Origin: a virus
DNA length: 64,000 nucleotides
Strand: one strand, 5' to 3'
IMG/VR virus record: IMGVR_UViG_3300020317_000002
Location: 2,436-66,435 of that record
In this document: piece after piece, positions 2,470-29,323 of the stretch
Numbering within the stretch: the stretch's first letter is position 1
Layout of the letters: the number at the start of each line of letters is the position of its first letter
Made by a program: the position numbers and the translations under genes
Notes under the pieces: generated by a model
What the model saw: only the letters and a program-made list of their open reading frames with translations
The model's database searches: none
What the model was told of the DNA's origin: nothing

Positions 2470-3423
2470 ATGAAGCAGATAAAATCATTCAACCAGTTTA
2501 TTAACGAAAACTTAAACGAAGATACTAATGATCTTTTTAAAGTTTATTTAGCCATTGATCCTGATTCAGGTCACAGATGGTGGTCTTATAAAGGATTTGC
2601 GTCTGATAATTTCTTTATACAAATTAATAAAGATAATTATAAAGACATAGATATTAATCCAGACTATCCTATATTAACCTATAATTCAGGAGTGGTTGAA
2701 ACTCTTTTAAAAGAAGGATTAGTTAAAAAAGAAAATGTATATAATAGACCAGAATTTATTAAGCAATCTGGATCTAAAGCAGAGTTTCATAAAATAGTCG
2801 ATGGAGATGAAAACATTCCACGAACGGCACATGACGAGAAAGAAGCTTTAGAAATTGGTTTTCCATTAATAGCAAAACCCGCTGAAGGACATTCAGGTAT
2901 TGGAATTCAGGTTTTTAAATCTCAGGAAGAATGGGATAAAGCAGATCATTCTAAATTCGATGTATATTCAGAATTCGTAGATAAGAAATCAGAACATAGA
3001 ATAATTAACTTTAAAGGAGATGCTTTCTTTTGGATGGAAAGAGAACCATTAAATGATAAAGCAAAATCAGGTGATGGTGATGGAAAGGAACAAATGAATT
3101 TTAAATATATCAAAAGAGATATTAACACTCTTCCTGGAAAATTTAAAACACTAATAGAAAAGTTTTGTGAAAAGTTTAAGGATTTACCATATATATGTTT
3201 TGATATAATGGAAGATCAAGAAGGAAAGCTGTATATCATAGAAAGTAATTCTCAACCAGGAGTTCCTTATGATTCTACTGTACAGATATATCGTAAAGTC
3301 TTTAAAGATTTTTACGGAAGAGAAGTAAATAAAGACACTGATAAAGTTCTAACAAAATTGTCTAATGATTTAGATAAAAAAACAATAGAACTTGATAGTG
3401 AACGATTCGAAATAAAAGAATAA
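2470..3423 (+). CDS. ATP-grasp ligase, RimK-like, with a capsid-targeting-like N-terminus
   Basis: FPLIAKPAEGHSGIGI, SEFV..EHRI and CFDIMED..LYIIESNSQPG (ExN motif). N-terminus is MKQIKSFNQFINE. Confidence 0.8.
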   Translation: MKQIKSFNQFINENLNEDTNDLFKVYLAIDPDSGHRWWSYKGFASDNFFIQINKDNYKDIDINPDYPILTYNSGVVETLLKEGLVKKENVYNRPEFIKQSGSKAEFHKIVDGDENIPRTAHDEKEALEIGFPLIAKPAEGHSGIGIQVFKSQEEWDKADHSKFDVYSEFVDKKSEHRIINFKGDAFFWMEREPLNDKAKSGDGDGKEQMNFKYIKRDINTLPGKFKTLIEKFCEKFKDLPYICFDIMEDQEGKLYIIESNSQPGVPYDSTVQIYRKVFKDFYGREVNKDTDKVLTKLSNDLDKKTIELDSERFEIKE

Positions 3424-3426
3424 ATT

Positions 3427-3654
3427 ATGGCATATCCTGATATGACTTGTATGCATGTGAACCTATGGGTTCATCACATGGACATTGACAAACTGTTTGA
3501 CTTTATAACAGAAAGAATTAAAGAACCACCTGGCTATTGGATTTCTAGAGAATCCTGCCCTTCTACTATCACAGGAGGATATGCAGAAATTAACGTATCA
3601 TATAACACGTATCTTATGATTAGACGCGTTAAAGAACACGGACACTTTAATTGA
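3427..3654 (+). CDS. Hypothetical protein
   Basis: 75-aa ORF packed directly after the ATP-grasp gene. Confidence 0.6.
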   Translation: MAYPDMTCMHVNLWVHHMDIDKLFDFITERIKEPPGYWISRESCPSTITGGYAEINVSYNTYLMIRRVKEHGHFN

Positions 3655-3663
3655 AACAATTCC

Positions 3664-3689
3664 AAACGGAAGTGTATAGTTAAGTATAA
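3664..3689 (+). promoter_or_regulatory. AAAC-N16-GTATAA promoter (class II); a second near-copy overlaps it at 3654-3679
   Basis: Same motif and spacing as the copies at 4173, 8121, 16847, 17604 and 59701. Confidence 0.6.
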
Positions 3690-3706
3690 TTAATAGACTT
3701 CCAAGT

Positions 3707-4174
3707 ATGAATAGATTATGGTTACGATTTGCACTGTGTATTTACGCAATATTATATACAGCATGCCTGCCACTAATTCTGGGCATAGAGGATAGTTATA
3801 GCGATTATCATCAATTAAAACCAATCTTATTTCCTTTATTAACAATAGGAGTTTCATTCGGATTATGGCTTCATCGTTCGATTGAATGGAAAATACCAGC
3901 ATTCTTATTAATAATCATAGCATGCTTTAGTGTTGCAAATTACCCCACAATACATAACATATCTGCTATTCTATTTTTTATGTCATCGACATGGATCATG
4001 ATCTTTGATAAAAGATTTAAAATCTTTGGAATAATATCCGCAATATTATATCCAACCCTATTTATAAACACTGAGCAAAATCTATTCTTATTTGAAGTGT
4101 TACAGATACCTATTCTTTCCTTTTATCATTTCTCTCGAGTAGTGTACTTGATGAGATTAAAGAAGAAAATATAA
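3707..4174 (+). CDS. Multi-pass membrane protein
   Basis: About 5 hydrophobic segments in 155 aa. Confidence 0.7.
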   Translation: MNRLWLRFALCIYAILYTACLPLILGIEDSYSDYHQLKPILFPLLTIGVSFGLWLHRSIEWKIPAFLLIIIACFSVANYPTIHNISAILFFMSSTWIMIFDKRFKIFGIISAILYPTLFINTEQNLFLFEVLQIPILSFYHFSRVVYLMRLKKKI

Positions 4175-4198
4175 ACAATTACACATATTTGAGTATAA
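4173..4198 (+). promoter_or_regulatory. AAAC-N16-GTATAA promoter (class II)
   Basis: aaac-aattacacatatttga-gtataa at a gene junction. Confidence 0.6.
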
Positions 4199-4203
4199 TC
4201 TAT

Positions 4204-4452
4204 ATGGCAAAGAAGAAAACCAAGCTAGAGATTATTCACGTTAAGAAACCTATTATAGGCGAAACTTACTATTTTTATTTCGCCGGAGGATGGGATGTAG
4301 GTGTATTGGATTGCACTGCAGATAAATTAACAGAGTCCTATGGTCATCGATGGTTTACATTTGTTAATGGAAATTATGGAAGACAGATGAGATATCCAGT
4401 CTCTATTTATAATATTAGAAAAGAAAAACCTAAAAAAGAAAGTAATGTATAG
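4204..4452 (+). CDS. Hypothetical protein
   Basis: ATG at 4204 (MAKKKTKL) preferred over the TTG at 4189, which lies inside the promoter. Confidence 0.65.
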   Translation: MAKKKTKLEIIHVKKPIIGETYYFYFAGGWDVGVLDCTADKLTESYGHRWFTFVNGNYGRQMRYPVSIYNIRKEKPKKESNV

Positions 4453-5188
4453 TATTTCAGATTTAAAAAACATGTTATTTATTGACATTGAAACATCAAC
4501 TGCTGCAAAAGACCTAGACGGTTTTGCAGAGATTATTGGAGAAAATGCATACTCACACTGGGAAAAGAAAGCAAAGTATGGTAGACAAAGTAAATCAGAG
4601 TATGAAGGAGTTTCAGATGCTGATATGTATATCAAGGATGCTGCCCTTTATCCTGAATTTGGAAGAGCAGTAGTTATTACAATCGGGCAAGTCACCTTCC
4701 CAGATGGCATTACACCTACTCCTAAAGTAAAATCTTTTTACGGAGATGATGAAAAGAATACATTAAAGGAATTCATGGATACGATGGCATTAATATTCAA
4801 GAAAAATCCTAAAATTCAAATAGTAGGTCATAATATTAAAGGGTTTGATATGCCTTATTTAATTAAAAGATCCATTATTCAAGGTGTAGAAATTCCACAA
4901 CAATTACACTTACAGAAACTTAAGCCATGGGAGAATTGTCTATTAGACACTAATGAAATATGGAAATTCGGTGGATGGAATGGTGCATCTCTTTCTATGA
5001 TTTGTGATTTATTACAGATACCTTCTCCTAAACAAAATATGTATGGTGGTGAAGTATCAGAAGCGTATTATGCCGGAAGATTAGAGGAAATTAAAGACTA
5101 TTGTGAAGATGATGTTATTGGAACTATGAATGTCTTATTGAAAATGTCAGATATGGAACTAGTATCTAAGGTAGTAGCTCCTTTTTAA
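4445..5188 (+). CDS. DnaQ-like 3'-5' exonuclease related to the PolB exonuclease domain
   Basis: DEDDy motifs FIDIET, GHNIKGFDMPYL and YCEDDV; also SL..IC..L.IPSPK. Confidence 0.85.
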   Translation: MYSISDLKNMLFIDIETSTAAKDLDGFAEIIGENAYSHWEKKAKYGRQSKSEYEGVSDADMYIKDAALYPEFGRAVVITIGQVTFPDGITPTPKVKSFYGDDEKNTLKEFMDTMALIFKKNPKIQIVGHNIKGFDMPYLIKRSIIQGVEIPQQLHLQKLKPWENCLLDTNEIWKFGGWNGASLSMICDLLQIPSPKQNMYGGEVSEAYYAGRLEEIKDYCEDDVIGTMNVLLKMSDMELVSKVVAPF

Positions 5189-5195
5189 TTTAAAC

Positions 5196-5261
5196 TTTTT
5201 TGAAAATAAACAGCTAAAAGTTTTTTTATCTCAGAAATTTTGCTTATATTAGTATAGTAAT
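5196..5261 (+). promoter_or_regulatory. Conserved ~65-bp intergenic repeat, putative early host-RNAP promoter (class I), copy 1
   Basis: AAAATAAA..AAAAGTTTTTTTATCTCAGAwwTTTTGCTTATATTAGTAwAGTA, near-identical at 11831 and 12272. TATATTAG resembles the Bacteroidota -7 element TAnnTTTG. Confidence 0.75.
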
Positions 5262-5276
5262 TAAAAATAAAAAAAT

Positions 5277-5570
5277 ATGTTTGACGACTTTGATGGTTTT
5301 GAAGACCAAAACAACGATGAGCACGATGAAATAGCTCAAATACAAAAAAATGCAGATATGGAAAATAACCTTCATGAACTAAAAGATAAACTAGTTAGAA
5401 ATAACTGGGATATGATTTTAGAAAAAGGAGTTGATTTTAAATCGATGCAAGACAATGGTATCGAAATAGAACCAATTGTCAGAACACTACAACAGATGTT
5501 AGATTGGTTTCAAGAATCTGAAGAGTATGAAAAGTGTGCTCATCTTAAAAAGATTTTAGACAATCAATAA
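5277..5570 (+). CDS. Acidic protein with a C-terminal UvrB/UvrC (UVR)-like motif
   Basis: WFQESEEYEKCAHLKKIL. Confidence 0.7.
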   Translation: MFDDFDGFEDQNNDEHDEIAQIQKNADMENNLHELKDKLVRNNWDMILEKGVDFKSMQDNGIEIEPIVRTLQQMLDWFQESEEYEKCAHLKKILDNQ

Positions 5571-5575
5571 ATACG

Positions 5576-5583
5576 TATAAATA
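5576..5583 (+). promoter_or_regulatory. T4-type late promoter TATAAATA, 4 nt before the ATG at 5588
   Basis: Exact T4 late consensus with the same ATG spacing as the GATATATA sites. Confidence 0.55.
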
Positions 5584-5587
5584 TACT

Positions 5588-5782
5588 ATGGAAGAACAAT
5601 TATTAAAAGTCATTGCGGAGCAACTTACGAGAATTGCAGACCTTATGGAAAATCAACAAAAGAGAGATGTTGTTGAAAAAAGAAAAGGCATTAAAGTCGT
5701 TAAGGAAGCCGTAAAGAAAAGAAAGAATGAATTACTACGAACTGCTGCAGATAGAAAAGACAGCAAGCCAAGCCGAGATTAA
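5588..5782 (+). CDS. Small basic hypothetical protein
   Basis: 64 aa; follows a late motif and overlaps dnaJ by 56 nt. Confidence 0.55.
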   Translation: MEEQLLKVIAEQLTRIADLMENQQKRDVVEKRKGIKVVKEAVKKRKNELLRTAADRKDSKPSRD

Positions 5783-6527
5783 GAAGGCGTATCGTAAACT
5801 AGCAAAGCAATATCATCCTGATATTGCCGAAGGGGATGAATCTTCTTTTAAAGAAATAGTTACGGCATACGAGGTTTTATCTGACGAGAACAGGAAAAGA
5901 AAGTATGATATTGAATTAGGATATAAGTCTTCTGATAATCCGTTTCATAGTTGGTTTCAAAACGGAGAAGGATCTTTTAGTGATATGTTTAATGATGCGT
6001 TTGGTTCCTCTTCAAAGGGAAGAGACGTTACGGTTAGAATGTCAATAACGTTAGAAGAATCTTATCATGGAACTCAAAAGAGAGTAGACATAGGTTCTAA
6101 AAAACTAAACGTTAATATACCTAAAGGAGTTTATGAAGGTATGAAGTTAAAGATTAGTGGGAAAGGTCAACCTCATCCTGCTAATTCATCTGCACCTAAA
6201 GGAGATCTAATCATTATAATTAATTTAAGGCTTGATGATAGGATTATACTACACGGTAATGACATCTACATAGATGCAGATGTTCCCTTCTATGATATGA
6301 TTCTAGGAACAGAAATAGAAATCAATACACCCTTTTATAAAATAAAGGTAAATGTGCCTCCAAATTCACAGAATAATAAGATATTAAGAATAAGTGGTAA
6401 AGGATTCCCGATATATAGTATGAATACTTATGGTAACCTCATGGTGAAATTAAATGCATTTAATCCACCCCTTAAAGATTCACAAATAGACTTAATAAAA
6501 AAAATAAAAGAAATAGACAATGAATGA
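5727..6527 (+). CDS. dnaJ: DnaJ/CbpA-type (class B) co-chaperone
   Basis: J-domain YYELL..IKKAYRKLAKQYHPD..AYEVLSD plus a DnaJ C-terminal domain; no zinc finger. Confidence 0.92.
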   Translation: MNYYELLQIEKTASQAEIKKAYRKLAKQYHPDIAEGDESSFKEIVTAYEVLSDENRKRKYDIELGYKSSDNPFHSWFQNGEGSFSDMFNDAFGSSSKGRDVTVRMSITLEESYHGTQKRVDIGSKKLNVNIPKGVYEGMKLKISGKGQPHPANSSAPKGDLIIIINLRLDDRIILHGNDIYIDADVPFYDMILGTEIEINTPFYKIKVNVPPNSQNNKILRISGKGFPIYSMNTYGNLMVKLNAFNPPLKDSQIDLIKKIKEIDNE

Positions 6528-6825
6528 TTTACCAGATTTTGACGAATGGGATAATTCAGATAACAATAGAGATAATCAAGAATTTGAAATTAGCAACAGC
6601 GTGGAATCGATTGCATTTATTGAACAATTGAAATCATCATCAAAGGAAATCATGATGGAATTAATTTATAAAGCTATAGTTGAAAACGAAATGGGAGCAT
6701 TAAACAACAATACTCCTAAAGAAGAAAAAATAGCAGCACTAGAAACGGTTATCAGATTCTTCATAGAAAAGGAAGAATACGAAAGATGCCATGAACTTAA
6801 AAAAATTCAGAGCAATATATGTTAA
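6520..6825 (+). CDS. Acidic protein with a C-terminal UVR-like motif
   Basis: FFIEKEEYERCHELKKI. Confidence 0.7.
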   Translation: MNDLPDFDEWDNSDNNRDNQEFEISNSVESIAFIEQLKSSSKEIMMELIYKAIVENEMGALNNNTPKEEKIAALETVIRFFIEKEEYERCHELKKIQSNIC

Positions 6826-7016
6826 TAATTAACGTAGACAAGGGAAACATAGAAAAAGCTTTAAAACAATATAAGCGCAAGACCATCAGGACTAAACAGA
6901 TGAAAAAGGTTAGAGATGGTAAACAGTATAATAAGCCTTCCGCAGTAAAGAGGCTCAAGTTTCAAAAGGCTGTATATCTTCAAAAGAAATCTGATGCCGA
7001 GAATCCAGATAAGTAA
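6819..7016 (+). CDS. rpsU: 30S ribosomal protein bS21 (phage-encoded, Bacteroidota-type)
   Basis: MLIINV..GNIEKALKQYKRK....KPSAVKR..QKAVYLQ matches the Flavobacterium bS21 pattern. Confidence 0.92.
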   Translation: MLIINVDKGNIEKALKQYKRKTIRTKQMKKVRDGKQYNKPSAVKRLKFQKAVYLQKKSDAENPDK

Positions 7017-7121
7017 AATATAATAACATATCTTTTTACTTCATTTTACCATATAACTTATCGGAATTAAATATATAACATAGAGATTATTAATATCTCT
7101 GTTAAAAAAACATACTTTGTA

Positions 7122-7379
7122 ATGAAGGAATCTTTTGGTGATGACAAGGACGCATTGATGAGATCAAGCTATTATACTATCACAAGAAATTTTACTAAAA
7201 CCATTAATAGATTTATTGTATTCAGCGAAGGCAAGAATACGATAGAAATACCACATGGAGAAGGGCAAAGAAGCAAGTTCATAGATATTATTATAGAATA
7301 TTTTGAGGAACTTGAGGAGTATGAGAAATGTGATACGTTATTACAGCTTAAAAAAACGGTAATAATGGCAGGAGACTAA
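7122..7379 (+). CDS. Small protein with a C-terminal UVR-like motif
   Basis: YFEELEEYEKCDTLLQLKK; AATATATA late-like motif at 7070. Confidence 0.7.
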   Translation: MKESFGDDKDALMRSSYYTITRNFTKTINRFIVFSEGKNTIEIPHGEGQRSKFIDIIIEYFEELEEYEKCDTLLQLKKTVIMAGD

Positions 7380-7393
7380 AAAAATTAAACTCA

Positions 7394-8122
7394 ATGAGCA
7401 AAAACAATTCAAATAATAATTCTTCATCTAGTTCCGATGGACCTAGAAGAAGAAGATACGGAATAAAAGAAGCAGAATTAAAAGGAGTACAATTAAGACA
7501 ATCCCAAAAGAAATATACAAACACAATACTAGAGAATCAGATAACGTTTTGCACAGGACCAGCTGGAACATCCAAAACATTTACAGCATGTTATACTGCA
7601 CTTCTCCTCTTAGCTAGAAAAGAGATTTCACAAATAGTATTATGTAAACCCATCCAAGAAGCAGGTGAAAAGTTAGGATTTTTACCAGGAGATATCGCAG
7701 ATAAGATAGATCCATTTATGCAATCATACATATCTAACATTACAAAAATAGTAGGAGCTGAAATAGCTCGGACCCTTGTCGAGAAAGAAGTCATCGTATT
7801 TAGGCCAATGGCTTATATGAGAGGTGATACATTTGACGGATCATTAATGGTATTAGATGAAGCACAGAACGCTACATTTAAACAACTAATGTTATTTGTA
7901 ACAAGAATGGGTAAAGACTCTAAAGTTATAGTAACCGGAGACGTTAGTCAGCATGATATATCTAAAGCCAATGTTGGTTTACCTTCATTTACCGAATTAA
8001 TGACAGGTATTAGGGGAATAGGTGTTCATGAATTTACAGAAAAAGATATTGTTAGAGCAAAGATCCTTCAGGAAGTTGTAAAGAGATATGACAAGTGGAA
8101 GGAAAACCACGAGCCTAAATAA
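7394..8122 (+). CDS. phoH: PhoH family ATPase
   Basis: GPAGTSKT, EKLGFLPGD, YMRGDTF, LDEAQN, TRMG, GDVSQHD. Confidence 0.93.
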   Translation: MSKNNSNNNSSSSSDGPRRRRYGIKEAELKGVQLRQSQKKYTNTILENQITFCTGPAGTSKTFTACYTALLLLARKEISQIVLCKPIQEAGEKLGFLPGDIADKIDPFMQSYISNITKIVGAEIARTLVEKEVIVFRPMAYMRGDTFDGSLMVLDEAQNATFKQLMLFVTRMGKDSKVIVTGDVSQHDISKANVGLPSFTELMTGIRGIGVHEFTEKDIVRAKILQEVVKRYDKWKENHEPK

Positions 8123-8146
8123 ACATTTCATGAAATGTGTGTATAA
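8121..8146 (+). promoter_or_regulatory. AAAC-N16-GTATAA promoter (class II)
   Basis: aaac-atttcatgaaatgtgt-gtataa upstream of RNase HII. Confidence 0.6.
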
Positions 8147-8163
8147 CTCCTATAAAACTTAAC

Positions 8164-8793
8164 ATGGAGAAAACAAAACACATCTTACTTAAAGGAAGTT
8201 ATCATGATGATAGAAGTATCGTCGAAGTTGGAATAGATGAAGCGGGCCGAGGTGCCTTAGCAGGACCAGTTACGGTATCTGCAGTTATTATGCCACATGG
8301 ATTTAGTCACCCTTTAATAAAAGATTCTAAATTACTAAACGAATCTCAAAGAAAGGAAGCTAGGGAAATAGTATTAGATAACGCAATTGCGTATAGTGTT
8401 CAACATATAGATATTGAAACAATAGAATCCACTAACATATTAAAGGCTACTCTTTTAGGAATGAAAGAATGTCTAAATACTATTGACAATTCATTTAATT
8501 TTATATTAGTAGATGGAGATCAATTTCATGGTTATGAGGGAATACCCTTTAAAACTGTAATTGGCGGAGATAATAGATATAGTTCTATTGCAGCAGCCTC
8601 TATACTTGCTAAAACAAGTAGAGATATGTTAATGAAAGAATTAGATGAAGAAACTCCAGGATATGGATGGAATTCTAATAAAGGATATGGAACTAAACAA
8701 CATATAACTGCAATAAAGGAAATAGGAGCTAGTGACGTACACCGCCCTTCCTTTATATCACATCTATTAACTACTACCAATTCATTATTCTAA
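8164..8793 (+). CDS. rnhB: Ribonuclease HII
   Basis: GIDEAGRGALAGPV, DSKLL, ILVDG, SIAAASILAK, NKGYGTKQH. The ATG at 8164 lies downstream of the promoter. Confidence 0.93.
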   Translation: MEKTKHILLKGSYHDDRSIVEVGIDEAGRGALAGPVTVSAVIMPHGFSHPLIKDSKLLNESQRKEAREIVLDNAIAYSVQHIDIETIESTNILKATLLGMKECLNTIDNSFNFILVDGDQFHGYEGIPFKTVIGGDNRYSSIAAASILAKTSRDMLMKELDEETPGYGWNSNKGYGTKQHITAIKEIGASDVHRPSFISHLLTTTNSLF

Positions 8794-9134
8794 TGAAACT
8801 TTTTTACGGCTTTTTATTATTTCTCCTAGGGCAAGGACTTATTTGGATTCAAACTAATGGACAATTCGTATGGCCTTGGTTTAAGAAAAACCCATGGCCG
8901 GTTGCCATCGGAATGGGTTCTATTATTAGTTACATTTTAATCAGAGCAACGCAGATGGTTGTTGAGCACTTTGATGGTTTACTTTGGCCTGGAAGATTTA
9001 TAGGTTTCGCTAGTGGTATTCTTATATTTACTGCTATGACTTATTACTTCATGAATGAAGGTATCACGGCGAAGACCGGAGTGTCTCTCTTATTAACCCT
9101 TATTTTAATATCGATTCAAATACTATGGAAATAA
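8793..9134 (+). CDS. Small 4-TM membrane protein (DMT/SMR-like)
   Basis: Four hydrophobic helices in 113 aa, with a YYFMNEGI..K loop typical of DMT proteins. Confidence 0.6.
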   Translation: MKLFYGFLLFLLGQGLIWIQTNGQFVWPWFKKNPWPVAIGMGSIISYILIRATQMVVEHFDGLLWPGRFIGFASGILIFTAMTYYFMNEGITAKTGVSLLLTLILISIQILWK

Positions 9135-9850
9135 ATTCAGTCACAGTTGTTCTTACCTCATGTGGAAGAGTTGATCTTTTAGAAAAAACACTAGATTCTT
9201 TTTTTAAATTCAACACATATCCAATCGAAAGATTTATCATAACCGAGGACTCTGCACAGGAAGAAGTATTTGAAGCATGTAATGAGCTTAATAAGAAGTA
9301 TGATAACTCTCTCGAGTTTATGTTTAATGAAAATAAACTAGGACAATCTAAGTCAATAGATAAAGCATACTCTACTGTAACTACTAAATATGTTTTTCAT
9401 TGTGAAGAAGATTGGGAATTCTATAGACATGGATTTATTGAAGATTCTATTAGAATTCTTTCTGCAAGTAAAAAGATATTACAAGCATGGATACGCCCAA
9501 AGAGTGATAGGATTTTAAATAAAATATCTGAAAAGACATTTGAATTAAATGGAATGAAAGTTAGAGCTGTTCTTCCTGCTAGTTTTTCGACAGGAGACAC
9601 GAACGAAGACGGCACTCCTATGATAGTTAGGAACTATATGGGATTTAGCTGGAATCCAGGCCTAAAAAGAATCAGCGACTACAGACTATTAAATAACGGG
9701 TACACGGGAATGGTTAGAGAACATCTAGTAGATCACTGGTATAGAGATCAGGGTTTTATAGTTGTTAGTTTATCAGTTAACGATAATGATGGATATGTTA
9801 AACATATCGGATGGGATAGAAGAGCTGGAGATCCTGGATTTGTAGGATAG
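9125..9850 (+). CDS. GT2-like glycosyltransferase
   Basis: VTVVLTSCGRVDLLEKTLDSF, FHCEEDWEF, FSWNPGL, YVKHIG. Confidence 0.8.
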   Translation: MEINSVTVVLTSCGRVDLLEKTLDSFFKFNTYPIERFIITEDSAQEEVFEACNELNKKYDNSLEFMFNENKLGQSKSIDKAYSTVTTKYVFHCEEDWEFYRHGFIEDSIRILSASKKILQAWIRPKSDRILNKISEKTFELNGMKVRAVLPASFSTGDTNEDGTPMIVRNYMGFSWNPGLKRISDYRLLNNGYTGMVREHLVDHWYRDQGFIVVSLSVNDNDGYVKHIGWDRRAGDPGFVG

Positions 9851-11830: not shown

Positions 11831-11895
11831 TTTTTGAAAATAAATGCCCAAAAGTTTTTTTATCTCAGATTTTTTGCTTATATTAGTATAGTAAT
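11831..11895 (+). promoter_or_regulatory. Class I early-promoter repeat, copy 2
   Basis: Near-identical to 5196-5261. Confidence 0.75.
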
Positions 11896-11911: not shown

Positions 11912-12136
11912 ATGATCAGAAAGAAACTTCATAAACATCAATCAAATCCTGTAATAATCGACTTAACAGGTCCTGAAGGAAATGCCTTCATGCTATTAGC
12001 TTACGCAAAAAGCTTTTCAAAAGATCTTGGAAAAGATTGGGAAACTCTTTATTCTCAAATGACAGGAGGAGACTATGAAAATCTTATTAAAGTATTTGAC
12101 GAAGCGTTTGGAGATTTCGTAATCTTAGAAAGGTAA
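11912..12136 (+). CDS. Conserved-type phage hypothetical protein
   Basis: IDLTGPEGNAF..L....GDYENL..VFD..FG pattern; follows an early promoter. Confidence 0.75.
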   Translation: MIRKKLHKHQSNPVIIDLTGPEGNAFMLLAYAKSFSKDLGKDWETLYSQMTGGDYENLIKVFDEAFGDFVILER

Positions 12137-12273
12137 TGGAAAACAAGGGTAAGAAATTAAAAGAAGTAAACTTAACACTACAAGAGTGGCTGGATGCCCT
12201 TCGTATGCCTACTCCTGTGAGAAACAAGAAAAAGTATCGAAGAAAGAATAAGCATAAAAACAAAGAAGATTAA
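12136..12273 (+). CDS. 45-aa basic protein, ArfA (alternative ribosome-rescue factor)-like; not in the ORF track
   Basis: MENKGKKLKEVNLTLQEWLDALRMPTPVRNKKKYRRKNKHKNKED. The start overlaps the upstream stop (TAATG) and the ORF fills the gap exactly. Confidence 0.6.
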   Translation: MENKGKKLKEVNLTLQEWLDALRMPTPVRNKKKYRRKNKHKNKED

Positions 12274-12329
12274 AAATAAATGGTAAAAGGTTTTTTTATC
12301 TCAGATTTTTTGCTTATATTAGTAAAGTA
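12272..12329 (+). promoter_or_regulatory. Class I early-promoter repeat, copy 3
   Basis: Near-identical to copies 1 and 2. Confidence 0.75.
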
Positions 12330-22099: not shown

Positions 22100-22104
22100 G
22101 GATA

Positions 22105-24309
22105 ATGCCATTAAGTAATCACATTTTAAATGTAATAGAACACTCACTGGAATTAGACGGAATAGAGTTTAATTCGTTTGATGAAGAAGAAGGCGCACAG
22201 AAAATAAGCCATGAAATAGGAGGTCCTATTCCAATGGTAGTTATTAACCATGCCAATTTTACGGGACAGGACATTAGGAGATTTGAAATTGATTGTACTG
22301 CTAAAATTCCTAAATTATCAGTTTCTATAATCGATACTAAGGGAACATTCGACGCAGATCAAATCCCCAGAGATGGCGATGTGGTTTCAATAAGAATAGC
22401 CTCAAGGCAACAAGACACATTTAAGGATATCAGAATAGATTTTGATATAGATGAAATATCAGGTCCTCCTGCTGGTTCTTTAGAAAAAGCAACAAACGGA
22501 TCCAAATATTCTATACAGGGTACTATGAAAGTACCAACTCTTTATTCAGAAGGTTGCGCATCTTATGAAGGAACTTCAAGAGAACAGGTTGAAGAATTTG
22601 CAAACAATTTAAAATTAGGATTAGCCACTAATGTTGATTCATCGGATGATGCAATGAAAGCTCTTAATGCATGTCAACCTAATATAGAATTTTTAAATAA
22701 TTTAGTAGAACATTCATATATCGGTGAAAACAGTTTTCAAACATATTGTATTGATCCTTATTATAACTTATGTTTCGTAGATGTCAATGCTCTTTTGAAT
22801 TCAGAAGAAGGATTAGATGAAACTCTTATTAATTTTGAAATAGATTTCGACGAAGACGGAGAAGAACAATCTTCTAATAAAATAGAAATACCTAACCTAT
22901 TAACTAATGCTGAATCAATGAATTCCACGAATTCCTTTATACAGAGTTTTAATTTAGTTAACAATAGTGGAGGCCTTTCGAAAAAGAATGGCTATAAAAG
23001 AAAAATGATGTATTATGAGAACGATTCCATCGGAGTTGTCTCTCATGAACTTGAGCCACTTGCAAGCGATAACATGAAGGATATTGAGGAGCCACTTAAA
23101 GGAAGAAGAGGCGAGGACAGATATACCAAAGAAGTGAAGTCAAAGTACATGGGAAGGCTTCCTATTCAAGAAGGAGATCTACCGAATGTACATCTGAATT
23201 ATTCGTATTCTTCAATTAGTAATCAACAAAACCTTGATGAAATGAATAAAATGAAGTTAGAAATAACTTTGAAAACATTTAACCCGGGAATTCATCTATG
23301 GCAAAAAATACCCGTTCAAATACTGAAAGGTGGATTTACCCAAATCTCTGCACAACAGGCAACAGTTGAGGGTAAAGATGAAAAGGGATTCGACACAGTT
23401 CAAAATGAAGAAGAAGTTGAAAGTGTAAATGATTTAAATACAGATCAGGTTAAAGATGAATTTTTAACAGGGTATTATGTAATAGGAGGAATTAAATACC
23501 TATATAACCAATCTACTGGGATTATTCAAAAACTTACACTATTAAGAAGAGAATGGCCAAGTAGACTTAGAGAGATAACCGAAGAGAAGCTAAAGGATGA
23601 AACTCCACCGGCTCCTTCTCCGCCACCTCCTCCACCTCCGCCTCCACCGCCACCTCCCCCACCACCGGAGCCAGAACCTCCAGTGAAACCTGTCTTTTCA
23701 TTAGAGACAATAGATTGGAGAAGCAGCTATGGCGGATGGTTAGATCAGACTAGACTATTCACATGGAGTGTTGACAATGAAGATTTAATATCAGGTGTTC
23801 CAGCTATTGAGGTAAAAATAGATGTAGGTGGGCCCGATGAAATGGTACTAACCGCTGATGTTTTCGAAGAACTAAAACAACAAGAGGGTCCATATCCAAT
23901 GATGATGCCGAAATATAATGCAGAAGTATTTGTTGAAGGTGGGTTATTTGAAGGTAAAGAAGATACTGAAAAACAGGTCGAGATTACACTAACATACGAG
24001 GATGAAATAGTTACGGTAAATGAAAAAATAAAATTCTTACCATGGGAACCTGGTAAAGAAATTAAAACACGATCGATTTTTGCCGGCAAGGGTAAAAATA
24101 AGAAAATGTGGACATATAATGTTAAAAATGGTGAGGAAGTTTCTAAATATAAGGGTAGATGGACATTAAATAATGAAGCCATAGCAAATAACAAATCCGG
24201 AGGAAATCCGTTTATAACGTCAGGTGAATTAACAGCAGATGATATACAGAGTGCTATAAGCCAGACTGAGTCTAGTTGGCAATCCGAATATCAATCAGAT
24301 AACTCTTAA
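22105..24309 (+). CDS. Putative baseplate hub protein (gp27/gpD-like) with a polyproline linker and extra C-terminal domain
   Basis: Lies between the LysM and gp5 genes. Hub-like ending LTGYYVI..IKY...QKLTLLRREW, then 16 prolines. Confidence 0.55.
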   Translation: MPLSNHILNVIEHSLELDGIEFNSFDEEEGAQKISHEIGGPIPMVVINHANFTGQDIRRFEIDCTAKIPKLSVSIIDTKGTFDADQIPRDGDVVSIRIASRQQDTFKDIRIDFDIDEISGPPAGSLEKATNGSKYSIQGTMKVPTLYSEGCASYEGTSREQVEEFANNLKLGLATNVDSSDDAMKALNACQPNIEFLNNLVEHSYIGENSFQTYCIDPYYNLCFVDVNALLNSEEGLDETLINFEIDFDEDGEEQSSNKIEIPNLLTNAESMNSTNSFIQSFNLVNNSGGLSKKNGYKRKMMYYENDSIGVVSHELEPLASDNMKDIEEPLKGRRGEDRYTKEVKSKYMGRLPIQEGDLPNVHLNYSYSSISNQQNLDEMNKMKLEITLKTFNPGIHLWQKIPVQILKGGFTQISAQQATVEGKDEKGFDTVQNEEEVESVNDLNTDQVKDEFLTGYYVIGGIKYLYNQSTGIIQKLTLLRREWPSRLREITEEKLKDETPPAPSPPPPPPPPPPPPPPPPEPEPPVKPVFSLETIDWRSSYGGWLDQTRLFTWSVDNEDLISGVPAIEVKIDVGGPDEMVLTADVFEELKQQEGPYPMMMPKYNAEVFVEGGLFEGKEDTEKQVEITLTYEDEIVTVNEKIKFLPWEPGKEIKTRSIFAGKGKNKKMWTYNVKNGEEVSKYKGRWTLNNEAIANNKSGGNPFITSGELTADDIQSAISQTESSWQSEYQSDNS
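23620..23667 (+). repeat. (CCN)16 polyproline tract
   Basis: 16 consecutive Pro codons using all four synonymous codons. Confidence 0.95.
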
Positions 24310-24333
24310 AGAATTAAATAGAATATATACTAT

Positions 24334-25503
24334 ATGTCAGATTTTAAAAATAAATTAGATTTTCAAAAAGGTAAATTAGCACAGTCGCCGTATCAGGATC
24401 CGACTTTTTTATCGTTCGTTATATTATTTAATACAAGCGATCATACTAATTCACCTTTATTATCTGGAGCAGCTGAAGAATTTTACAAAAAGCAATTTGG
24501 AGGTACTAAGTTTTACAAAGAAAGACTTGATGCCTTAACTAAGTTTAAAACAGCATTATTAGATATTAATAGAAATACCCCATGGTTCTTTCAAGGATTA
24601 CAGGGTGTTGATAGAGCAATTACAAATTTTAATCCCGGCGTTCCATATCTTGGAGGAGATGATGCAAAGTTAACGTTAAGTTGCTTAGAATCTATTAACC
24701 TTAGAGTTTCCGGTCTTATGCACTTATATAGAAAAGCAGTGTTTGACGAAATTAAATGGAATTGGATTTTACCTGAAAACTTAAGAAAGTTTTCGATGAT
24801 AGTATACGTTACTGAAGTTAGAAAGATTCAGAACATGTCTAAAATTACATTATCAGGTGTTCCTAAAAAGATAGACTTAGCTGCTATTAAGGGTTTTCCT
24901 GGAAATATGAAACCAAGCTTAGGCGTTGATAATTCAAATGCGGGTATATCTGGATCTAGTAATAGACCTTTCTTTATGTTTAGATTTGGTGAATGTGAAT
25001 TTGCTTTAAATACAGGTTCTGAAATATTTGCAGATCTTACTAAAAATCCAAGCGAACAAGCACGACAAACTATTGAAATGAAATATGAAGTCATAGATAG
25101 TATGGATGCAAGAGTATTAAATGGCATAGTTGCCGACACTATACCCAATGCATTATCCCCTGCACATGATTCAGAAGATTATGAAGCAGACGGAATATTA
25201 GGTCTTTTAGGAGATAAGCTTAAAGGAAAACTTAAAGAATTAGGAGAAAGAGGCCTCGATGATCTTAATAGATTAGCAAGAGAAAAGAAAGATGAATTAA
25301 TTCAAAGCGCAAGAGACGGCATTAGAGGCAGGGTTCCTAATTTTGAAAACATTTACCAAGACGCATTAAAAGGCGTTTCGGACGGAGTAGACAATATAGG
25401 TTCTAATATCGCTGAAAATGTATTTAATGTAGATACTAGTTCAACGGTAGGAGCTGCGCTAGACAATGCCGCTGCTCAATCTCTTGGTAATATAAACGAT
25501 TAA
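24334..25503 (+). CDS. Putative baseplate/tail structural protein
   Basis: 389 aa in the baseplate cluster; AATATATA 4 nt before the ATG. Confidence 0.55.
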   Translation: MSDFKNKLDFQKGKLAQSPYQDPTFLSFVILFNTSDHTNSPLLSGAAEEFYKKQFGGTKFYKERLDALTKFKTALLDINRNTPWFFQGLQGVDRAITNFNPGVPYLGGDDAKLTLSCLESINLRVSGLMHLYRKAVFDEIKWNWILPENLRKFSMIVYVTEVRKIQNMSKITLSGVPKKIDLAAIKGFPGNMKPSLGVDNSNAGISGSSNRPFFMFRFGECEFALNTGSEIFADLTKNPSEQARQTIEMKYEVIDSMDARVLNGIVADTIPNALSPAHDSEDYEADGILGLLGDKLKGKLKELGERGLDDLNRLAREKKDELIQSARDGIRGRVPNFENIYQDALKGVSDGVDNIGSNIAENVFNVDTSSTVGAALDNAAAQSLGNIND

Positions 25504-25506
25504 CGT

Positions 25507-26208
25507 ATGTCAACTGAAAAAGAATTAAATACTGATAATCTTAGAGACACTCATTGGTTAGGAGAAGTTATCGATAATGTCGATCCTCTTAAAATGGGTA
25601 GATGTAAGGTTAAGGTTTTGGGTAAATATGACAATTTACCAGATGATGCAATTCCATGGGCAACTCCTATGAATAGAAACGCAGTAGGTTCACACCTTGT
25701 TCCTAGAATAGGAGATATAGTTTCAGCTAGATTTGATAATGGTAATTTATATCATCCTGAATATTGGTTTCATATAGATCAAAATCTTGATCTTAAAGAA
25801 GACATATTAGACGGAGCTGGAAATGCTGAAAATGTAATCAGCTTAATATATGATGCTGAAAGAAACTTAAGAATTTATCACTCAGAAGAAGATGGCCTTG
25901 TAATTACTAGAGGCCTTGGCGCAAAGGAAAGACCTATAATTCAAATAGACGAAGCCGGCGATATTAAAATTTCAACAGGTGATAGGATATTTTTAGATGC
26001 AGGTAACATATTTTTAAGTAATACTGGAGAACCTGGAGAAGACACTGAACAACCCGCTGTGAGAGGATTATCTTTAGAAGATTTCCTAGCAAATTTTATC
26101 GCAGACTATAAGGCACATATTCATCCGACAGGTGTTGGTCCTTCTGGAACTTTACAGGTTCCATTTGTAGAAGGAGATCACAAGTCATATCAACAAGAAA
26201 ATAAATAA
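25507..26208 (+). CDS. Baseplate central spike (gp5/gpV-like OB fold)
   Basis: WLGEVIDNVDPLKMGRCKVKV.G...IPWATP...VP.IGD.V; C-terminal HIHPTGVGPS (HxH metal-binding tip). Confidence 0.85.
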   Translation: MSTEKELNTDNLRDTHWLGEVIDNVDPLKMGRCKVKVLGKYDNLPDDAIPWATPMNRNAVGSHLVPRIGDIVSARFDNGNLYHPEYWFHIDQNLDLKEDILDGAGNAENVISLIYDAERNLRIYHSEEDGLVITRGLGAKERPIIQIDEAGDIKISTGDRIFLDAGNIFLSNTGEPGEDTEQPAVRGLSLEDFLANFIADYKAHIHPTGVGPSGTLQVPFVEGDHKSYQQENK

Positions 26209-26210
26209 CT

Positions 26211-27902
26211 ATGCCTGCAAAATGGTCACCTTTCATAGATGAAGTATCTGATATTCTTGAAAATAGAGGATCTTTGGATGCAAAAGATTTCGGAAAGAAA
26301 TTGGCAAATGCATATTTAACAGCTATCAAGGGTAATGCAACATGTGTTCCGGGAATGGCTGCCCATGAAACATCTGCCGGAGAGGCTGCATTTGTAGCAA
26401 GTTACGAACAATGGTTTCATGACCTTTATGAAAAGGGTGAACCTACGATGCTAACCCCCGATAATGAAAAACCTCTCGTAAATCAAAAAGATAATTTAAT
26501 AGCATATTTAGCGACGGAAGCTGGTTCAGAAACTAGACTAACTATTGCCGGAAAGGACAACGATCCAGAATATAATAAATTAGAAGGTGAAATAGGAGAA
26601 GGTATACAGTATGAACCTACCGAAGAACTCGACAAGTATTTAGAAGAGTATAAGGATGACGGAACAGAAAGTCTATATAGATTTAAATTCTTCGAGTTTC
26701 ATCGCTTAGATGGTAAAGAAACCCCTGATGAATTGGCTAGAATATTTGCAACGAGATTATTAATGCAATTTGAAGATATTTCTGACGGAGATAAAAGATG
26801 GGATTTTTGGCACTGGGCCACGTGGATGGGAACTAACAAAATTACACAAAGTACAGTGGGAGGATATACTCTATGGGAGATTAATGATATGAACGATAAC
26901 AGGGATGCGGCTATATCTACCCTAATGGGATTAGATTGGAGTTGGCAATCATTTAAATCTTCCTCTAATGTGACGGTAACTAATACCAGTGGAAATTATA
27001 ATGGTGAATTTTATTTACTGGTTTCTAAATATGTAATTGATGAAATAAAAAAGTGCCATCCTATAGTAGATAGCAACGGAGAGTTTTTATACAATGAAGA
27101 AACTGCAATAAAGAAAGATTCTATAAAGGCTATTGAATATCCATGGCCCTTTGATACTACATTACCCGTAGGATATGAAGAAATGGAACCTGCTGAAAAA
27201 TTAAAAGTAAGATATCCATTCAAATTAACTAATTTAAAAATACAGGAACCTTTTAATGAAAATAAGAAAATGCCACCTGTATTAACTCAAAACGTTATTA
27301 CAGAATTTACATGGAACGGTAAAAAAGACTATGGTTTTAAAAAGACCAAAGTTAAACCGGTTTTTATAGAAGATGAATTAAGAAAAAAGTGGCAAGGATG
27401 TCCTCTTACTGAAAGTGACGAAACACAGAATTCTATTGTGAATATAGATATGTCTAAGACGGGAACTTTAGCTAAGCAAATTAGAAATACTTTAATAGTA
27501 GAAATGGGAATTGAAGCTGCAATGTTAGCAGAAGGCGGAAGTAAAGATGATCCATATAAAGAACTTGCAAAGGCAACTCTTAAATATTGGAAAGACGCGA
27601 CAATACAGCCATTTGCTACAGATCCCCCTACCCCACCATGTTTATCTGTTCCGGTTCTTTTAGGAAAATACATAGGTGTTAGTTATGGAAATCAGAAGAA
27701 ATTAGCAGACAATATTAGAAGAGCCCTTAATTCCGGAAAGGATTCTGATAACGCACATGAAGCAGCTGAAATAGTGGCAAAGGCACTTGCATATTCTTAT
27801 TTTACACATCTTAGCCAAATGAAATTTATTTACATGGGTGGAATCCCGGTTCCTTTAGTTCCATACATCCCGATGATAGGATTTGACGCCACCGTAATTT
27901 GA
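26211..27902 (+). CDS. Spike-associated hypothetical structural protein
   Basis: 563 aa directly after gp5. Confidence 0.6.
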   Translation: MPAKWSPFIDEVSDILENRGSLDAKDFGKKLANAYLTAIKGNATCVPGMAAHETSAGEAAFVASYEQWFHDLYEKGEPTMLTPDNEKPLVNQKDNLIAYLATEAGSETRLTIAGKDNDPEYNKLEGEIGEGIQYEPTEELDKYLEEYKDDGTESLYRFKFFEFHRLDGKETPDELARIFATRLLMQFEDISDGDKRWDFWHWATWMGTNKITQSTVGGYTLWEINDMNDNRDAAISTLMGLDWSWQSFKSSSNVTVTNTSGNYNGEFYLLVSKYVIDEIKKCHPIVDSNGEFLYNEETAIKKDSIKAIEYPWPFDTTLPVGYEEMEPAEKLKVRYPFKLTNLKIQEPFNENKKMPPVLTQNVITEFTWNGKKDYGFKKTKVKPVFIEDELRKKWQGCPLTESDETQNSIVNIDMSKTGTLAKQIRNTLIVEMGIEAAMLAEGGSKDDPYKELAKATLKYWKDATIQPFATDPPTPPCLSVPVLLGKYIGVSYGNQKKLADNIRRALNSGKDSDNAHEAAEIVAKALAYSYFTHLSQMKFIYMGGIPVPLVPYIPMIGFDATVI

Positions 27903-27908
27903 TATATA
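27901..27908 (+). promoter_or_regulatory. Late promoter GATATATA upstream of bS1
   Basis: Octamer at the gene junction. Confidence 0.6.
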
Positions 27909-27947
27909 GCTAGTAAACATACATTAACCCTTTTAAAAACAAAGTAA

Positions 27948-29276
27948 ATGTCAACAAAGACAACTCAAAAACAAAAGAGAGCTAGACTCTCAGCGACAAC
28001 CCAACTAGTTGAAGCAAATCAAGAAACAGAAGTTAAAGTAGAAACTTCACTAAACTCACCAACCCCAGAAAAGGCCGTTCCTGGCCCAGACACAAATTAT
28101 CTAGATGATAATGGAGAATTCATGTGGGACGAATACGAGGCAACTTGTGTAACTAAACTCAGAAAACCTAACCCACATATTAAAACACCTAAAGGTGTAA
28201 AAGTATATAGTAGAGAGTCATATGCTCAAGAACTATTCGATATAATGGAAGGTCATTCACTGACTTCTAATACGATATATTCTTTACAATTAGGAGCAAG
28301 CTACACTGGAAAGGTATACGCAGTAGATTCCGAATGGGCATCAATTGATGTAGGATATAGGGAATTAATTTATGTAGATTTATCAAGAGAAGCAGAGGAA
28401 GTTCTAGAACTTCTAAAACAAGGAGCAGAGGTTGACGTTCAGTTAATTGCAGACACTTCGATGAATGTTAAGAAGTATATGATAGGTTCTGTAACTGAAG
28501 GTCTTAAGACTAAGGTTGTTAAAGAGATCATATCGTCGATTGACGATGGAAATACAGCATATAGCGGTGTTGTTTCTAAAATGATTCCAGGCGGAGGATA
28601 TATTGTAAAAGTTCAAGGTATTGAGTGCTTTATGCCTGGCTCATTAGCAGGTGTAAATAAATTACACGACTTTGAATCAATAATTGACACTGAAATGTAT
28701 GTAGTACCTGTAAGTTTTTCAGAAGAAAAAGGAACTGTTGTAGTTTCTCACAGAGCATACCTAAGAGCTCTTATTCCTAATACGCTTAAAGTGATACAGG
28801 AAGAAACTGCAACCGAAAGAACAGGACATGTTACTGGTTCTGCAAAATACGGTGTATTCGTTGAATTCGAAGGATGCTTAACTGGTATGATTCATGTTAA
28901 TGACCTGGACACTGAAACTGCAAAGGCACATAGAGACAGATCTTTAGAGCCAGGGACAGAGATTAAATTCTACGTCAAGGAAGTTATTAATGAAAGAAAA
29001 ATTACACTGGTCCAGGGTTCTCCTGCTGAAAAGAAAGTAGATCCGTGGGAAGGTATTTCCGAAAGATACACTAAGAAAACTGAAGTAGTAGGAACTGTAA
29101 AATCTACCAAAGATTATGGTCTATTTGTAGAAATAGAAGAAGGTGTAGTAGGCCTCTTACATATATCTGAATTCCCTGATAATATAGAAATTAAAGACAT
29201 ATCGAAAGGAGCAGATATTACAGTCCAAGTAATCAGAGTTGAAGAAGATACTAGAAAAGTATTTCTTAAACTATAA
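27948..29276 (+). CDS. rpsA: Ribosomal protein bS1-like (four S1 domains plus N-terminal extension)
   Basis: S1 repeats GGYIVKVQGIECFMPGS..VVVSHRAYL, YGVFVEFEG.LTGMIHVNDL and DPW...YGLFVEIEEGVVGLLHISE. Confidence 0.85.
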   Translation: MSTKTTQKQKRARLSATTQLVEANQETEVKVETSLNSPTPEKAVPGPDTNYLDDNGEFMWDEYEATCVTKLRKPNPHIKTPKGVKVYSRESYAQELFDIMEGHSLTSNTIYSLQLGASYTGKVYAVDSEWASIDVGYRELIYVDLSREAEEVLELLKQGAEVDVQLIADTSMNVKKYMIGSVTEGLKTKVVKEIISSIDDGNTAYSGVVSKMIPGGGYIVKVQGIECFMPGSLAGVNKLHDFESIIDTEMYVVPVSFSEEKGTVVVSHRAYLRALIPNTLKVIQEETATERTGHVTGSAKYGVFVEFEGCLTGMIHVNDLDTETAKAHRDRSLEPGTEIKFYVKEVINERKITLVQGSPAEKKVDPWEGISERYTKKTEVVGTVKSTKDYGLFVEIEEGVVGLLHISEFPDNIEIKDISKGADITVQVIRVEEDTRKVFLKL

Positions 29277-29295
29277 TCAAATCTATAATTTAGTT

Positions 29296-29323
29296 GAAAG
29301 AGCCCGATCACTCGGGCTTTTTC
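29296..29323 (+). terminator. Rho-independent terminator after bS1
   Basis: GAAAGAGCCCGA-tcac-TCGGGCTTTTTC. Confidence 0.8.

Follow-up and report, generated by a model that had tools for sequence, protein, structure and literature searches.

Ribosomal-protein homologues, an ATP-grasp ligase and a shared N-terminal leader in a marine jumbo phage: probably separate modules rather than one ribosome-remodelling system

We begin by considering the contents of a 64,000-base stretch of viral DNA (the window, throughout this text), positions 2,436 to 66,435 of the IMG/VR virus record IMGVR_UViG_3300020317_000002. Because CheckV rates the 66,435-base record as 26% complete, the source genome is put at about 250 kilobases (kb), and the window would represent about a quarter of a marine jumbo phage (a myovirus). 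The + strand carries nearly all of its genes, the GC content is 30-39%, and the tail and baseplate genes match only huge phages in GenBank, namely LR756500 and the Lak phages. Close relatives abound in metagenomes from the sea and from other aquatic settings. A transfer RNA scan of the window found none. Four genes are at issue (Table 1): an ATP-grasp ligase, a homologue of ribosomal protein bS21, a peptide of 45 amino acids (aa) and a protein like ribosomal protein bS1. A preliminary description had read them as one staged system that remodels the ribosome, and its coordinates are borne out, with 2470 as the start of the ATP-grasp gene and 29276 as the end of the S1-like gene. With moderate confidence, we read the features instead as three independent modules and not as one system.

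Table 1. Genes and promoter-like motifs of the window, in window positions (nt, nucleotides; ORF, open reading frame)
Feature	Position	Strand	Remark
Late-type motif, one-mismatch copy GATAAATAG	2458..2466	+	3 nt before the ATG of the ATP-grasp gene
Predicted ATP-grasp ligase, 317 aa, distinct phage family, N-terminal leader MKQIKSFNQFINE	2470..3423	+	weak Pfam matches, AlphaFold2 model, Foldseek
Early-type element, copy 1	5222..5254	+	upstream of operon 5277-7016
Late-type motif GATATATAG	6410..6418	+	exact copy within the DnaJ gene; 101 nt before ORF 6520, 400 nt before the bS21 gene
bS21 homologue, 65 aa, Bacteroidia type	6819..7016	+	Pfam, PHROG, NCBIfam and PDB matches
Leader-bearing protein, 185 aa	9862..10419	+	exact late-type motif 3 nt before ATG
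Early-type element, copy 2	11856..11888	+	
74-aa protein, first gene of the small early-type operon	11912..12136	+	no Pfam family
45-aa peptide, K/R-rich tail, presumed 'ArfA-like' candidate	12136..12273	+	
Early-type element, copy 3	12292..12324	+	
Leader-bearing protein, 179 aa	13951..14490	+	exact late-type motif 3 nt before ATG
Leader-bearing protein, 152 aa	14837..15295	+	
Leader-bearing protein, 160 aa	15292..15774	+	
Leader-bearing, very acidic (E/D-rich) protein, 333 aa	15828..16829	+	late-type motif 39 nt upstream
Late-type motif	27901..27909	+	38 nt upstream of the bS1-like gene
bS1-like protein, 442 aa: unique N-terminal region, conserved pre-domain segment (residues 58-103), four S1 domains	27948..29276	+	
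Amidoligase_2 protein with pentapeptide-repeat-like C-terminus	29382..30677	+	PF12224 27.4 vs 22; conserved bS1 neighbour

The bS1-like protein is matched by 12 bS1 models of NCBIfam. The best of them (NF004952, E=1.1e-40) gives a single alignment of residues 89-440 with model positions 26-371 of 580, and residues 21-344 of Escherichia coli bS1, which are its domains 1-4, align with the protein at E=1.3e-37. The tandem S1 domains are collinear with bS1 domains 1-4. Judged by these alignments the protein is a bS1 homologue, as had been claimed for it, though it stays below the equivalog cut-off. Its relatives in the protein collection number 2498 at E<=0.001, and the best 120 have lengths of 303-442 aa and identities of 49% or more. 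In an alignment of 27 relatives, domain 2 is nearly invariant and residues F58, W60, C67, N75, E90, Y92 and A93, which precede domain 1, are invariant. When residues 50-200 are modelled in complex with uS2 of Flavobacterium johnsoniae (RS2_FLAJ1), a stand-in for the host uS2, the interface score ipSAE is 0.71, against 0.00 for the best control; in calibration, 58 of 80 solved complexes attained the mark for this score, as did 2 of 110 mismatched pairs. The model runs agree in at least 91% of contacts, the partner has a predicted local distance difference test (pLDDT) value of at least 77, and the modelled interface consists mainly of residues 83-103 and 124-142. As S1-uS2 complexes have already been solved and the uS2 is a stand-in, the model speaks for a likeness to bS1 docking and not for binding; by this likeness the protein may keep an N-terminal segment of the uS2-docking type.

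Where is this gene placed among relatives of the phage? In the window it lies between a Phage_base_V protein (25507-26208) and a weakly gp25-like protein (31550-31903). The relatives are ranked by the identity of one marker gene (19863-21623 in the window), and those with a marker identity of 71-92% are called the near clade. The related IMG/VR records are all fragments (6-74% complete), and the searches of them cover 50 of the 55 related loci, the five omitted ones (L001, L012, L043, L046 and L047) being contigs of 8-20 kb. Of the 50 records, 45 have the bS1 gene, which in each of them follows the marker at a distance of 6.4-10.4 kb. Four of the other five are contigs that stop 1.8-6.0 kb beyond the marker; the fifth (G049, marker 33% identical) extends 14.1 kb downstream of it and shows no bS1 match there. 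When 17 bS1 genes of relatives were compared, the late-type motif recurred in its exact form 25-42 nt upstream of 11 and as the variant TATATATA before 5, with none for the remaining one (L053). LR756500 (462 kb) is collinear with window positions 17649-33741, including the bS1-like gene and the Amidoligase_2 gene that follows it, a pairing which is also kept in the collinear neighbourhood of L039. Among these relatives, bS1 thus belongs to the core of the baseplate module, at a syntenic position. PHROGs contain no family for the bS1-like, ATP-grasp or amidoligase proteins.

The bS21 homologue passes the curated cut-offs of Pfam (PF01165, 36.4 bits vs 27) and of the TIGR00030 equivalog (36.4 vs 28.95), which bears out its earlier identification, and among PHROGs it matches the one for ribosomal protein S21. 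In the PDB it is closest to bS21 of F. johnsoniae (chain 7jil_z, E=5.6e-10), which it matches end to end. The Bacteroidia type of bS21 is recognized, following the F. johnsoniae work (PMC7797042), by an aromatic residue where F. johnsoniae has Tyr54 and by a weakly basic C-terminus. Residues 1-60 of the phage protein align with residues 1-61 of 7jil_z and place Y53 on Tyr54, so the protein is assigned to this type. In the ribosome described there, Tyr54 stacks on A1534 in a pocket that hides the anti-Shine-Dalgarno sequence; bS21, bS18 and bS6 sequester that sequence jointly in Bacteroidia, and a phylum-specific C-terminal helix of bS6 touches the 3' end of 16S RNA (PMC7797042). A search for homologues of the phage protein returned 53 proteins and yielded no host assignment.

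The bS21 gene is the final one in a tight run (5277-7016) that starts after an early-type element. It had been described as preceded by a late motif, and that label is defensible because of the motif at 6410, the starts of RNA-library contigs over bS21 at 6422, 6475 and 6515, and a comparable late-type motif 343 nt upstream of bS21 in the relatives L044 and L045. Two genes upstream in the same run is a DnaJ protein (5727-6527; J domain E=5e-23, C-terminal domain 1e-34), and two genes downstream of bS21 is a PhoH gene.

The initiation signals of the window's genes can be set beside these two proteins. A Shine-Dalgarno-like sequence precedes only 2 of 62 start codons, and the fraction of A at positions -19 to -1 of these starts is 0.43-0.67, against 0.375 overall. 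By these features, translation initiation in the window is of the Bacteroidia type, without Shine-Dalgarno sequences and with A-rich leaders. Such leaders are described as a normal signal in Bacteroidia (PMC13000457); they are ordinary initiation there and therefore not a phage speciality.

The ATP-grasp protein, taken as a single sequence, gives weak Pfam matches that are scattered over many ATP-grasp families. There are 403 relatives in the protein collection, and an exhaustive search gives 243 representative clusters at E<=0.001. When 61 diverse members of this family are compared with Pfam, the matches are to Dala_Dala_lig_C (42), YheCD (39), ATPgrasp_ST (33), R2K_2 (21), RimK (18, weak), TTL (14) and R2K_3 (13). 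A profile of the family finds D-Ala-D-Ala ligases best (2.6e-9), with RimK chains at about 1.3e-3. The AlphaFold2 model has a pLDDT of 93.8 (60-64 for residues 1-20), and a Foldseek search with it lists LysX/ArgX at the top (1.5e-11), followed by Ddl, synapsin and PsnB; RimK (5zct_C) is at rank 23, yet it has the highest template modelling scores (TM-scores, 0.59/0.64). The viral structures matched are phage ATP-grasp proteins. K136 is invariant in the family, and E175, D245, E258 and N260 are invariant or nearly so (E258 and N260 in at least 90% of sequences). The protein thus has the ATP-grasp fold with the catalytic Lys and the E-x-N site, which mark the superfamily and not RimK. From the Pfam spread, the profile, the Foldseek ranking and the intact catalytic residues, we assign the protein to the amino-acid/peptide-ligase type, with a predicted RimK/LysX-like fold and a place outside the RimK family.

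Membership in RimK itself was considered and rejected, as both family cut-offs are failed (PF08443, 11.9 vs 21, E=0.17; TIGR00768, 16.7 vs 143.4), and PF08443 has no match in the six frames of the contig. RimK, LysX and ArgX ligate amino acids to the C-terminal carboxylate of proteins. The phage protein resembles them in its fold, its conserved Lys and its E-x-N metal site, and they are its nearest solved structures; it differs from them in that D-Ala-D-Ala ligases match equally well or better and in forming a separate family. What remains of the RimK-like ligase announced earlier is therefore the ATP-grasp fold and its residues. The RimK family assignment is gone, and neither a link to bS6 nor a ribosomal target for the enzyme is supported.

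The N-terminus of the ATP-grasp protein is shared with five unrelated neighbouring proteins. The six begin with M-K-x-[ILV]-[KM]-x-F-[EN]-x-[FWY] (gene starts 2470, 9862, 13951, 14837, 15292 and 15828), which amounts to 6 of the 65 window proteins; 2000 random sets gave 0.009 on average. The leader has about 13 residues with the consensus MKxIKxFExF(L/I/V)xE and ends in INE, LNE, LSE, WNE, GYE or VND, most of which have the form hydrophobic-x-E. Its codons differ synonymously between the copies, and hence the constraint acts on the protein. In the relatives whose marker is about 50% identical (the ~50% clade), the leader is found on non-orthologous proteins and on an ATP-grasp protein of their own (343 aa, 27-29% identical), which lies within a cluster of leader genes; the ATP-grasp homologue of LR756500 starts with the same leader. 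The pattern aromatic-x-x-aromatic-hydrophobic-x-E/D occurs in the first ~20 residues of 26 of 61 ATP-grasp representatives, compared with 0-1 of 61 at internal offsets. Homologues of the acidic 333-aa protein retain the leader in all clades. The highest word depth in all four RNA libraries also lies over the gene of that protein, a depth that cannot rank genes. The proteins at 26211 and 58340 fit only a loose leader pattern and may do so by chance.

A leader of this kind is reminiscent of the capsid-targeting system of phage T4. As that system is described, the first 10 residues of internal proteins target the prohead, the protease gp21 cleaves after L/I-x-E, and a short propeptide is removed from Alt, an enzyme that is injected (PMC9026906). 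The likeness lies in a short conserved leader that is carried by unrelated clustered proteins and in most copies ends in hydrophobic-x-E, in a gp21-family protease in part of the lineage (of 5 large relatives searched, 3 have a PF03420 match above the cut-off), and in one of the putative cargoes being an enzyme, as Alt is in T4 (PMC9026906, PMC3012670). The differences are that the leader here has another sequence and that the predicted cargo is an ATP-grasp ligase and not an ADP-ribosyltransferase. By this analogy it is a reasonable inference, evenly balanced in our estimate, that the ATP-grasp protein is virion-borne or injected. The injected ligase of the preliminary description accordingly gains a basis in sequence from the leader and from the protease of the relatives, with the reach that an analogy has.

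The 'ArfA-like' gene is assumed to be the one at 12136-12273, the only short ORF with a basic tail in the operon behind the early-type motif, where it is the second gene of a two-gene unit. In 22 records the peptide has the same sequence, and in 3 others it is 78-89% identical; in each of five near-clade loci all 4 nucleotide differences from the window in this gene are synonymous. By this conservation it is a real gene. It is like ArfA in being small and in its lysine/arginine-rich C-terminal tail; unlike ArfA, it matches neither the ArfA family of Pfam (PF03889, E<=1) nor any ArfA chain in the PDB (E<=10). Because a six-frame search of the whole 66,435-bp contig with PF03889 gave no match at E<=10, the negative result holds for any ORF that may have been meant. 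An ArfA lead from the Protein Atlas (a cluster at rank 19, score 0.90, with ArfA on 23% of its members) is at noise level, and the top clusters are unnamed. The ArfA claim is dropped on these grounds. The peptide was not found in the 19 records with a marker identity of 33-54% and is seen in the near clade only. In the ~50% clade a homologue of the 74-aa gene lies between bS1 and the amidoligase (L039:19540-19788), without the peptide gene.

Two promoter-like motifs accompany these genes. The early-type element of 33 nt has 3 copies where 0 are expected. The late-type motif, RATATATAV, has 20 copies, all on the + strand; 13 of the 20 are intergenic, with intergenic sequence making up 2.4% of bases (binomial 7e-17). 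Both motifs are, on these statistics, real. Exact late-type copies stand 3-4 nt before the ATG of genes 9862, 13951, 24334 and 31550, and 22-43 nt before that of genes 7122, 15828, 19863, 27948, 29382, 43192, 51503 and 58340, which makes two spacing classes; a distant ATP-grasp homologue has an exact copy about 21 nt upstream. The placement of bS21 and bS1 behind the motif of tail and baseplate genes stands, while the names 'early', 'late' and 'leaderless' express a timing and a class that we infer from sequence. A scan for sigma-70 promoters and terminators over 2000-16000 showed no enrichment (60 found vs 67.8 expected) and is uninformative on phage motifs.

Do the RNA data bear on these motifs? 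The RNA libraries are four runs from two samples of one study. Among the 32 listed of 175 RNA-library pieces, 6 start 0-7 nt after a copy of the late-type motif (6422, 7082, 7085, 9858 twice, and 15792), with about 0.1 expected by our own arithmetic, in contigs that cannot show RNA starts and libraries that may contain DNA, a caveat which counts against our use of the motif. It is a weak hint that the late-type motif marks RNA 5' ends. Differences in depth and uncovered stretches (part of the DnaJ gene upstream of 6410; the bin 19076-19742) are unusable as evidence, and the listed contigs over the ATP-grasp gene (2557-3228 and 2655-3036) stop short of its start. At the early-type element the contigs also fork or link up, with a connection that leads from 12342 back to 5203 and with free ends at 5200-5254 and 11903; this is consistent with a repeat that also occurs at other places in the genome.

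We now consider how the four genes are distributed. In the near clade, every record that spans the positions has bS1, bS21, the ATP-grasp protein and the peptide, and this co-presence is plain synteny among phages that are 71-92% identical. Farther away the set comes apart. Five records of the ~50% clade (G032, G033, G035, G036 and G037) have bS1, bS21 and the ATP-grasp gene, and the peptide was not found in them; in three others (G040, G041 and G044) bS1 and bS21 are present and neither the ATP-grasp gene nor the peptide was found. G042 (199.7 kb, 74% complete, marker 54%) has bS1 and a distant ATP-grasp copy 68 kb away, with no bS21 or peptide found, and in G045 (54%) bS1 was the only one of the four found. 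LR756500, a whole record of 462,018 bp (marker 37% over a BLAST segment), has bS1 and the ATP-grasp gene (E=6e-102) 69 kb apart, and no PF01165 (bS21) match in the whole record. These absences are firm only at syntenic positions of the fragment records and in the whole LR756500, which limits how far they speak for separate modules. Within that scope, bS21 and the ATP-grasp gene are each dispensable where bS1 is kept, and the distribution is uncoupled. In the window, too, the four candidate genes are dispersed over 27 kb in separate transcription units amid about 40 unrelated genes, which include an exonuclease, DnaJ, PhoH, RNase HII, a glycosyltransferase, a GATase, UvdE and a dCMP-deaminase. 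The independent distribution among relatives that the preliminary description had named as a refutation is thus found in part, with bS1 as core and the others absent variously, and this weakens the case for a single system.

How do the parts then fit together? In the three-module reading, the Bacteroidia-type bS21 and the four-domain bS1-like protein, each behind the TATATA-type motif of tail and baseplate genes, would most likely be made late and enter host 30S subunits. The ATP-grasp ligase of the phage family is a second module; its leader probably directs the leader-bearing proteins into the prohead, by analogy with T4, and the ligase would then be delivered with the DNA. The third would be the small early-type operon with the conserved 45-aa basic peptide, which is not ArfA. 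The integrated system would instead have an injected RimK-like ligase modify bS6, an early ArfA-like peptide free stalled ribosomes, and late bS21 and bS1 replace host proteins, so that the 30S platform is rebuilt in stages. We hold this to be very improbable. It can appeal to bS21 and bS1-like genes that are real and lie behind late-type motifs, to an ATP-grasp protein that is probably packaged and has as its nearest solved folds by TM-score RimK and LysX/ArgX, enzymes that all join amino acids to the C-terminus of a protein, to the joint role of bS21, bS18 and bS6 around the 16S 3' end in Bacteroidia (PMC7797042), and to the four genes being together in the near clade. The RimK cut-offs, the family profile that favours D-Ala-D-Ala ligases and the missing ArfA signal in Pfam, six frames and PDB stand against it, however, and the dispersal in separate units together with relatives that have bS1, bS21 and ATP-grasp, bS1 and bS21 only, or bS1 and ATP-grasp only weakens it further. 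A shade less credible still is a version in which the packaged ATP-grasp protein is injected and adds amino acids to a 30S platform protein (e.g., the C-terminal helix of bS6), which would loosen the anti-Shine-Dalgarno pocket of bS21, bS18 and bS6, after which late phage bS21 and bS1 would refill the platform and give ribosomes biased to leaderless and A-rich-leadered late messenger RNAs (mRNAs).

The reading in three modules has points that weigh against it as well, at the ribosome and at the virion. The entry of bS21 and the bS1-like protein into ribosomes is itself a presumed step. S1 domains are ubiquitous, the best bS1 score of the phage protein is 139.6 bits against an equivalog cut-off of 524, so that the test for a full six-domain rpsA failed, and domains 5-6 are absent; for the phage proteins of their survey, Al-Shayeb et al. 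caution that a true rpS1 is hard to confirm (PMC7162821). The fixed site inside the baseplate module, kept in 45 of 50 relatives and in LR756500, and the constant pairing with an Amidoligase_2 gene could mean a role unrelated to the ribosome, such as chaperoning RNA, protecting mRNA, serving a phage RNA enzyme as cofactor or taking part in baseplate-linked assembly. We consider such an off-ribosome role unlikely, as it is opposed by the strong conservation of the pre-domain-1 segment and its modelled fit to uS2, by the domain order that is collinear with bS1 D1-D4, and by a conserved late-type motif of its own, with which the gene resembles an inserted late gene and not a structural one. On the virion side, the packaging argument is by analogy only, the window's contig holds no head genes, PF03420 has no match in 2 of the 5 large relatives (incomplete records), and the leader helix could belong to the enzyme's own fold or be a signal of another kind. 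The ATP-grasp protein might then be an unpackaged cytoplasmic enzyme for the biosynthesis of a glycan, peptide or metabolite, with the leader as a signal for translation, folding or other sorting. This is doubtful, but the strongest of the alternatives: the gene follows a two-domain glycosyltransferase (550-2424) in a window with four GT2 proteins, and its best single Pfam match is 'sugar-transfer associated ATP-grasp' (E=1.6e-5, below the cut-off), a family that 33 of the 61 relatives match. The glycosyltransferase neighbourhood is not conserved, however. The ~50% clade places the ATP-grasp gene in the leader-gene cluster 4-5 kb upstream of the marker, and G042 and LR756500 have it some 68-69 kb away; the leader, moreover, is common to unrelated proteins, is conserved at the amino-acid level and ends in hydrophobic-x-E in a lineage with a gp21-type protease. 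We stay with a probable delivery of the ligase by the virion as part of the three-module reading.

Phage bS21 and bS1 are ordinary parts that have been published before. Al-Shayeb et al. 2020 describe huge phages without Shine-Dalgarno sequences that carry S1-domain proteins and bS21, for which they propose substitution of host proteins and redirected initiation (PMC7162821). The bS1-like protein of the window is homologous (35.7% identity) and syntenic with that of LR756500; what goes beyond their account is its fixed position in the baseplate module and the pre-domain segment modelled on uS2. Their bS21 has an N-terminal extension, whereas that of the window is plain, with 65 aa that align from residue 1. 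Chen et al. 2022 report bS21 in lake phages of Bacteroidetes and link it to late-stage expression (PMC9723584). The window resembles these phages in genome size (293-331 kb there), in GC content (31-34%), in Bacteroidetes as predicted hosts, in the aromatic residue kept at the Tyr54 position and in PhoH and chaperone genes near bS21. The setting differs: the lake phages encode bS21 on their reverse strand, surrounded by genes for TerL, portal, protease and capsid, whereas in the window it is on the forward strand after DnaJ, about 13 kb upstream of the tail module (PMC9723584). The main text of that paper does not mention S1.

For the ligase, the closest proposals concern the phage R2K ATP-grasp ligases, which Burroughs et al. 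2015 (PMC4431377) and Iyer et al. 2021 (PMC7824862) predict to tag host proteins, possibly translation components. Of the 61 family members, 21 match R2K_2 and 13 match R2K_3, while the window protein itself matches no R2K model at E<=1. An N-terminal packaging leader is absent from the passages on R2K consulted in these two papers (PMC4431377, PMC7824862). A literature search by titles and abstracts found no paper on a packaged ATP-grasp protein or on RimK in phages. What is interesting about the window is that its ligase is probably packaged. Three features may be new: a bS1 that is a fixed late member of the baseplate module and has a segment of the uS2-docking type, a late motif with two spacings, and a T4-like leader on an ATP-grasp protein.

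A takeover of translation through phage bS21 and bS1 is so far a published proposal, and this lineage, abundant in marine metagenomes, offers handles on it: a bS1, fixed as a late gene, with a putative uS2-docking segment; motif spacings that predict leaderless and leadered late mRNAs; and a putative T4-like packaging leader, by which an ATP-grasp ligase would be among the proteins injected with the DNA. If the packaging of the ligase is confirmed, a new class of enzyme would join the injected proteins of host takeover.

Some other genes of the window may be added. The gene at 10457-11050 encodes a protein like class-I glutamine amidotransferases and gamma-glutamyl hydrolases (phrog_7218, E=1.8e-16), with a weak match to gamma-glutamyl-CDP-amidate hydrolase; with the ATP-grasp and Amidoligase_2 proteins, this GATase brings the amide-bond enzymes of the window to three. 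The regions 17-2424, 9125-9850 and 11057-11779 encode a DUF6445 protein and four GT2 glycosyltransferase domains; the last of these regions is on the - strand, where no other clear gene lies within the first 32 kb. In the tail module, a 734-aa protein (22105-24309) contains a run of about 20 prolines that is followed by EPEPP.

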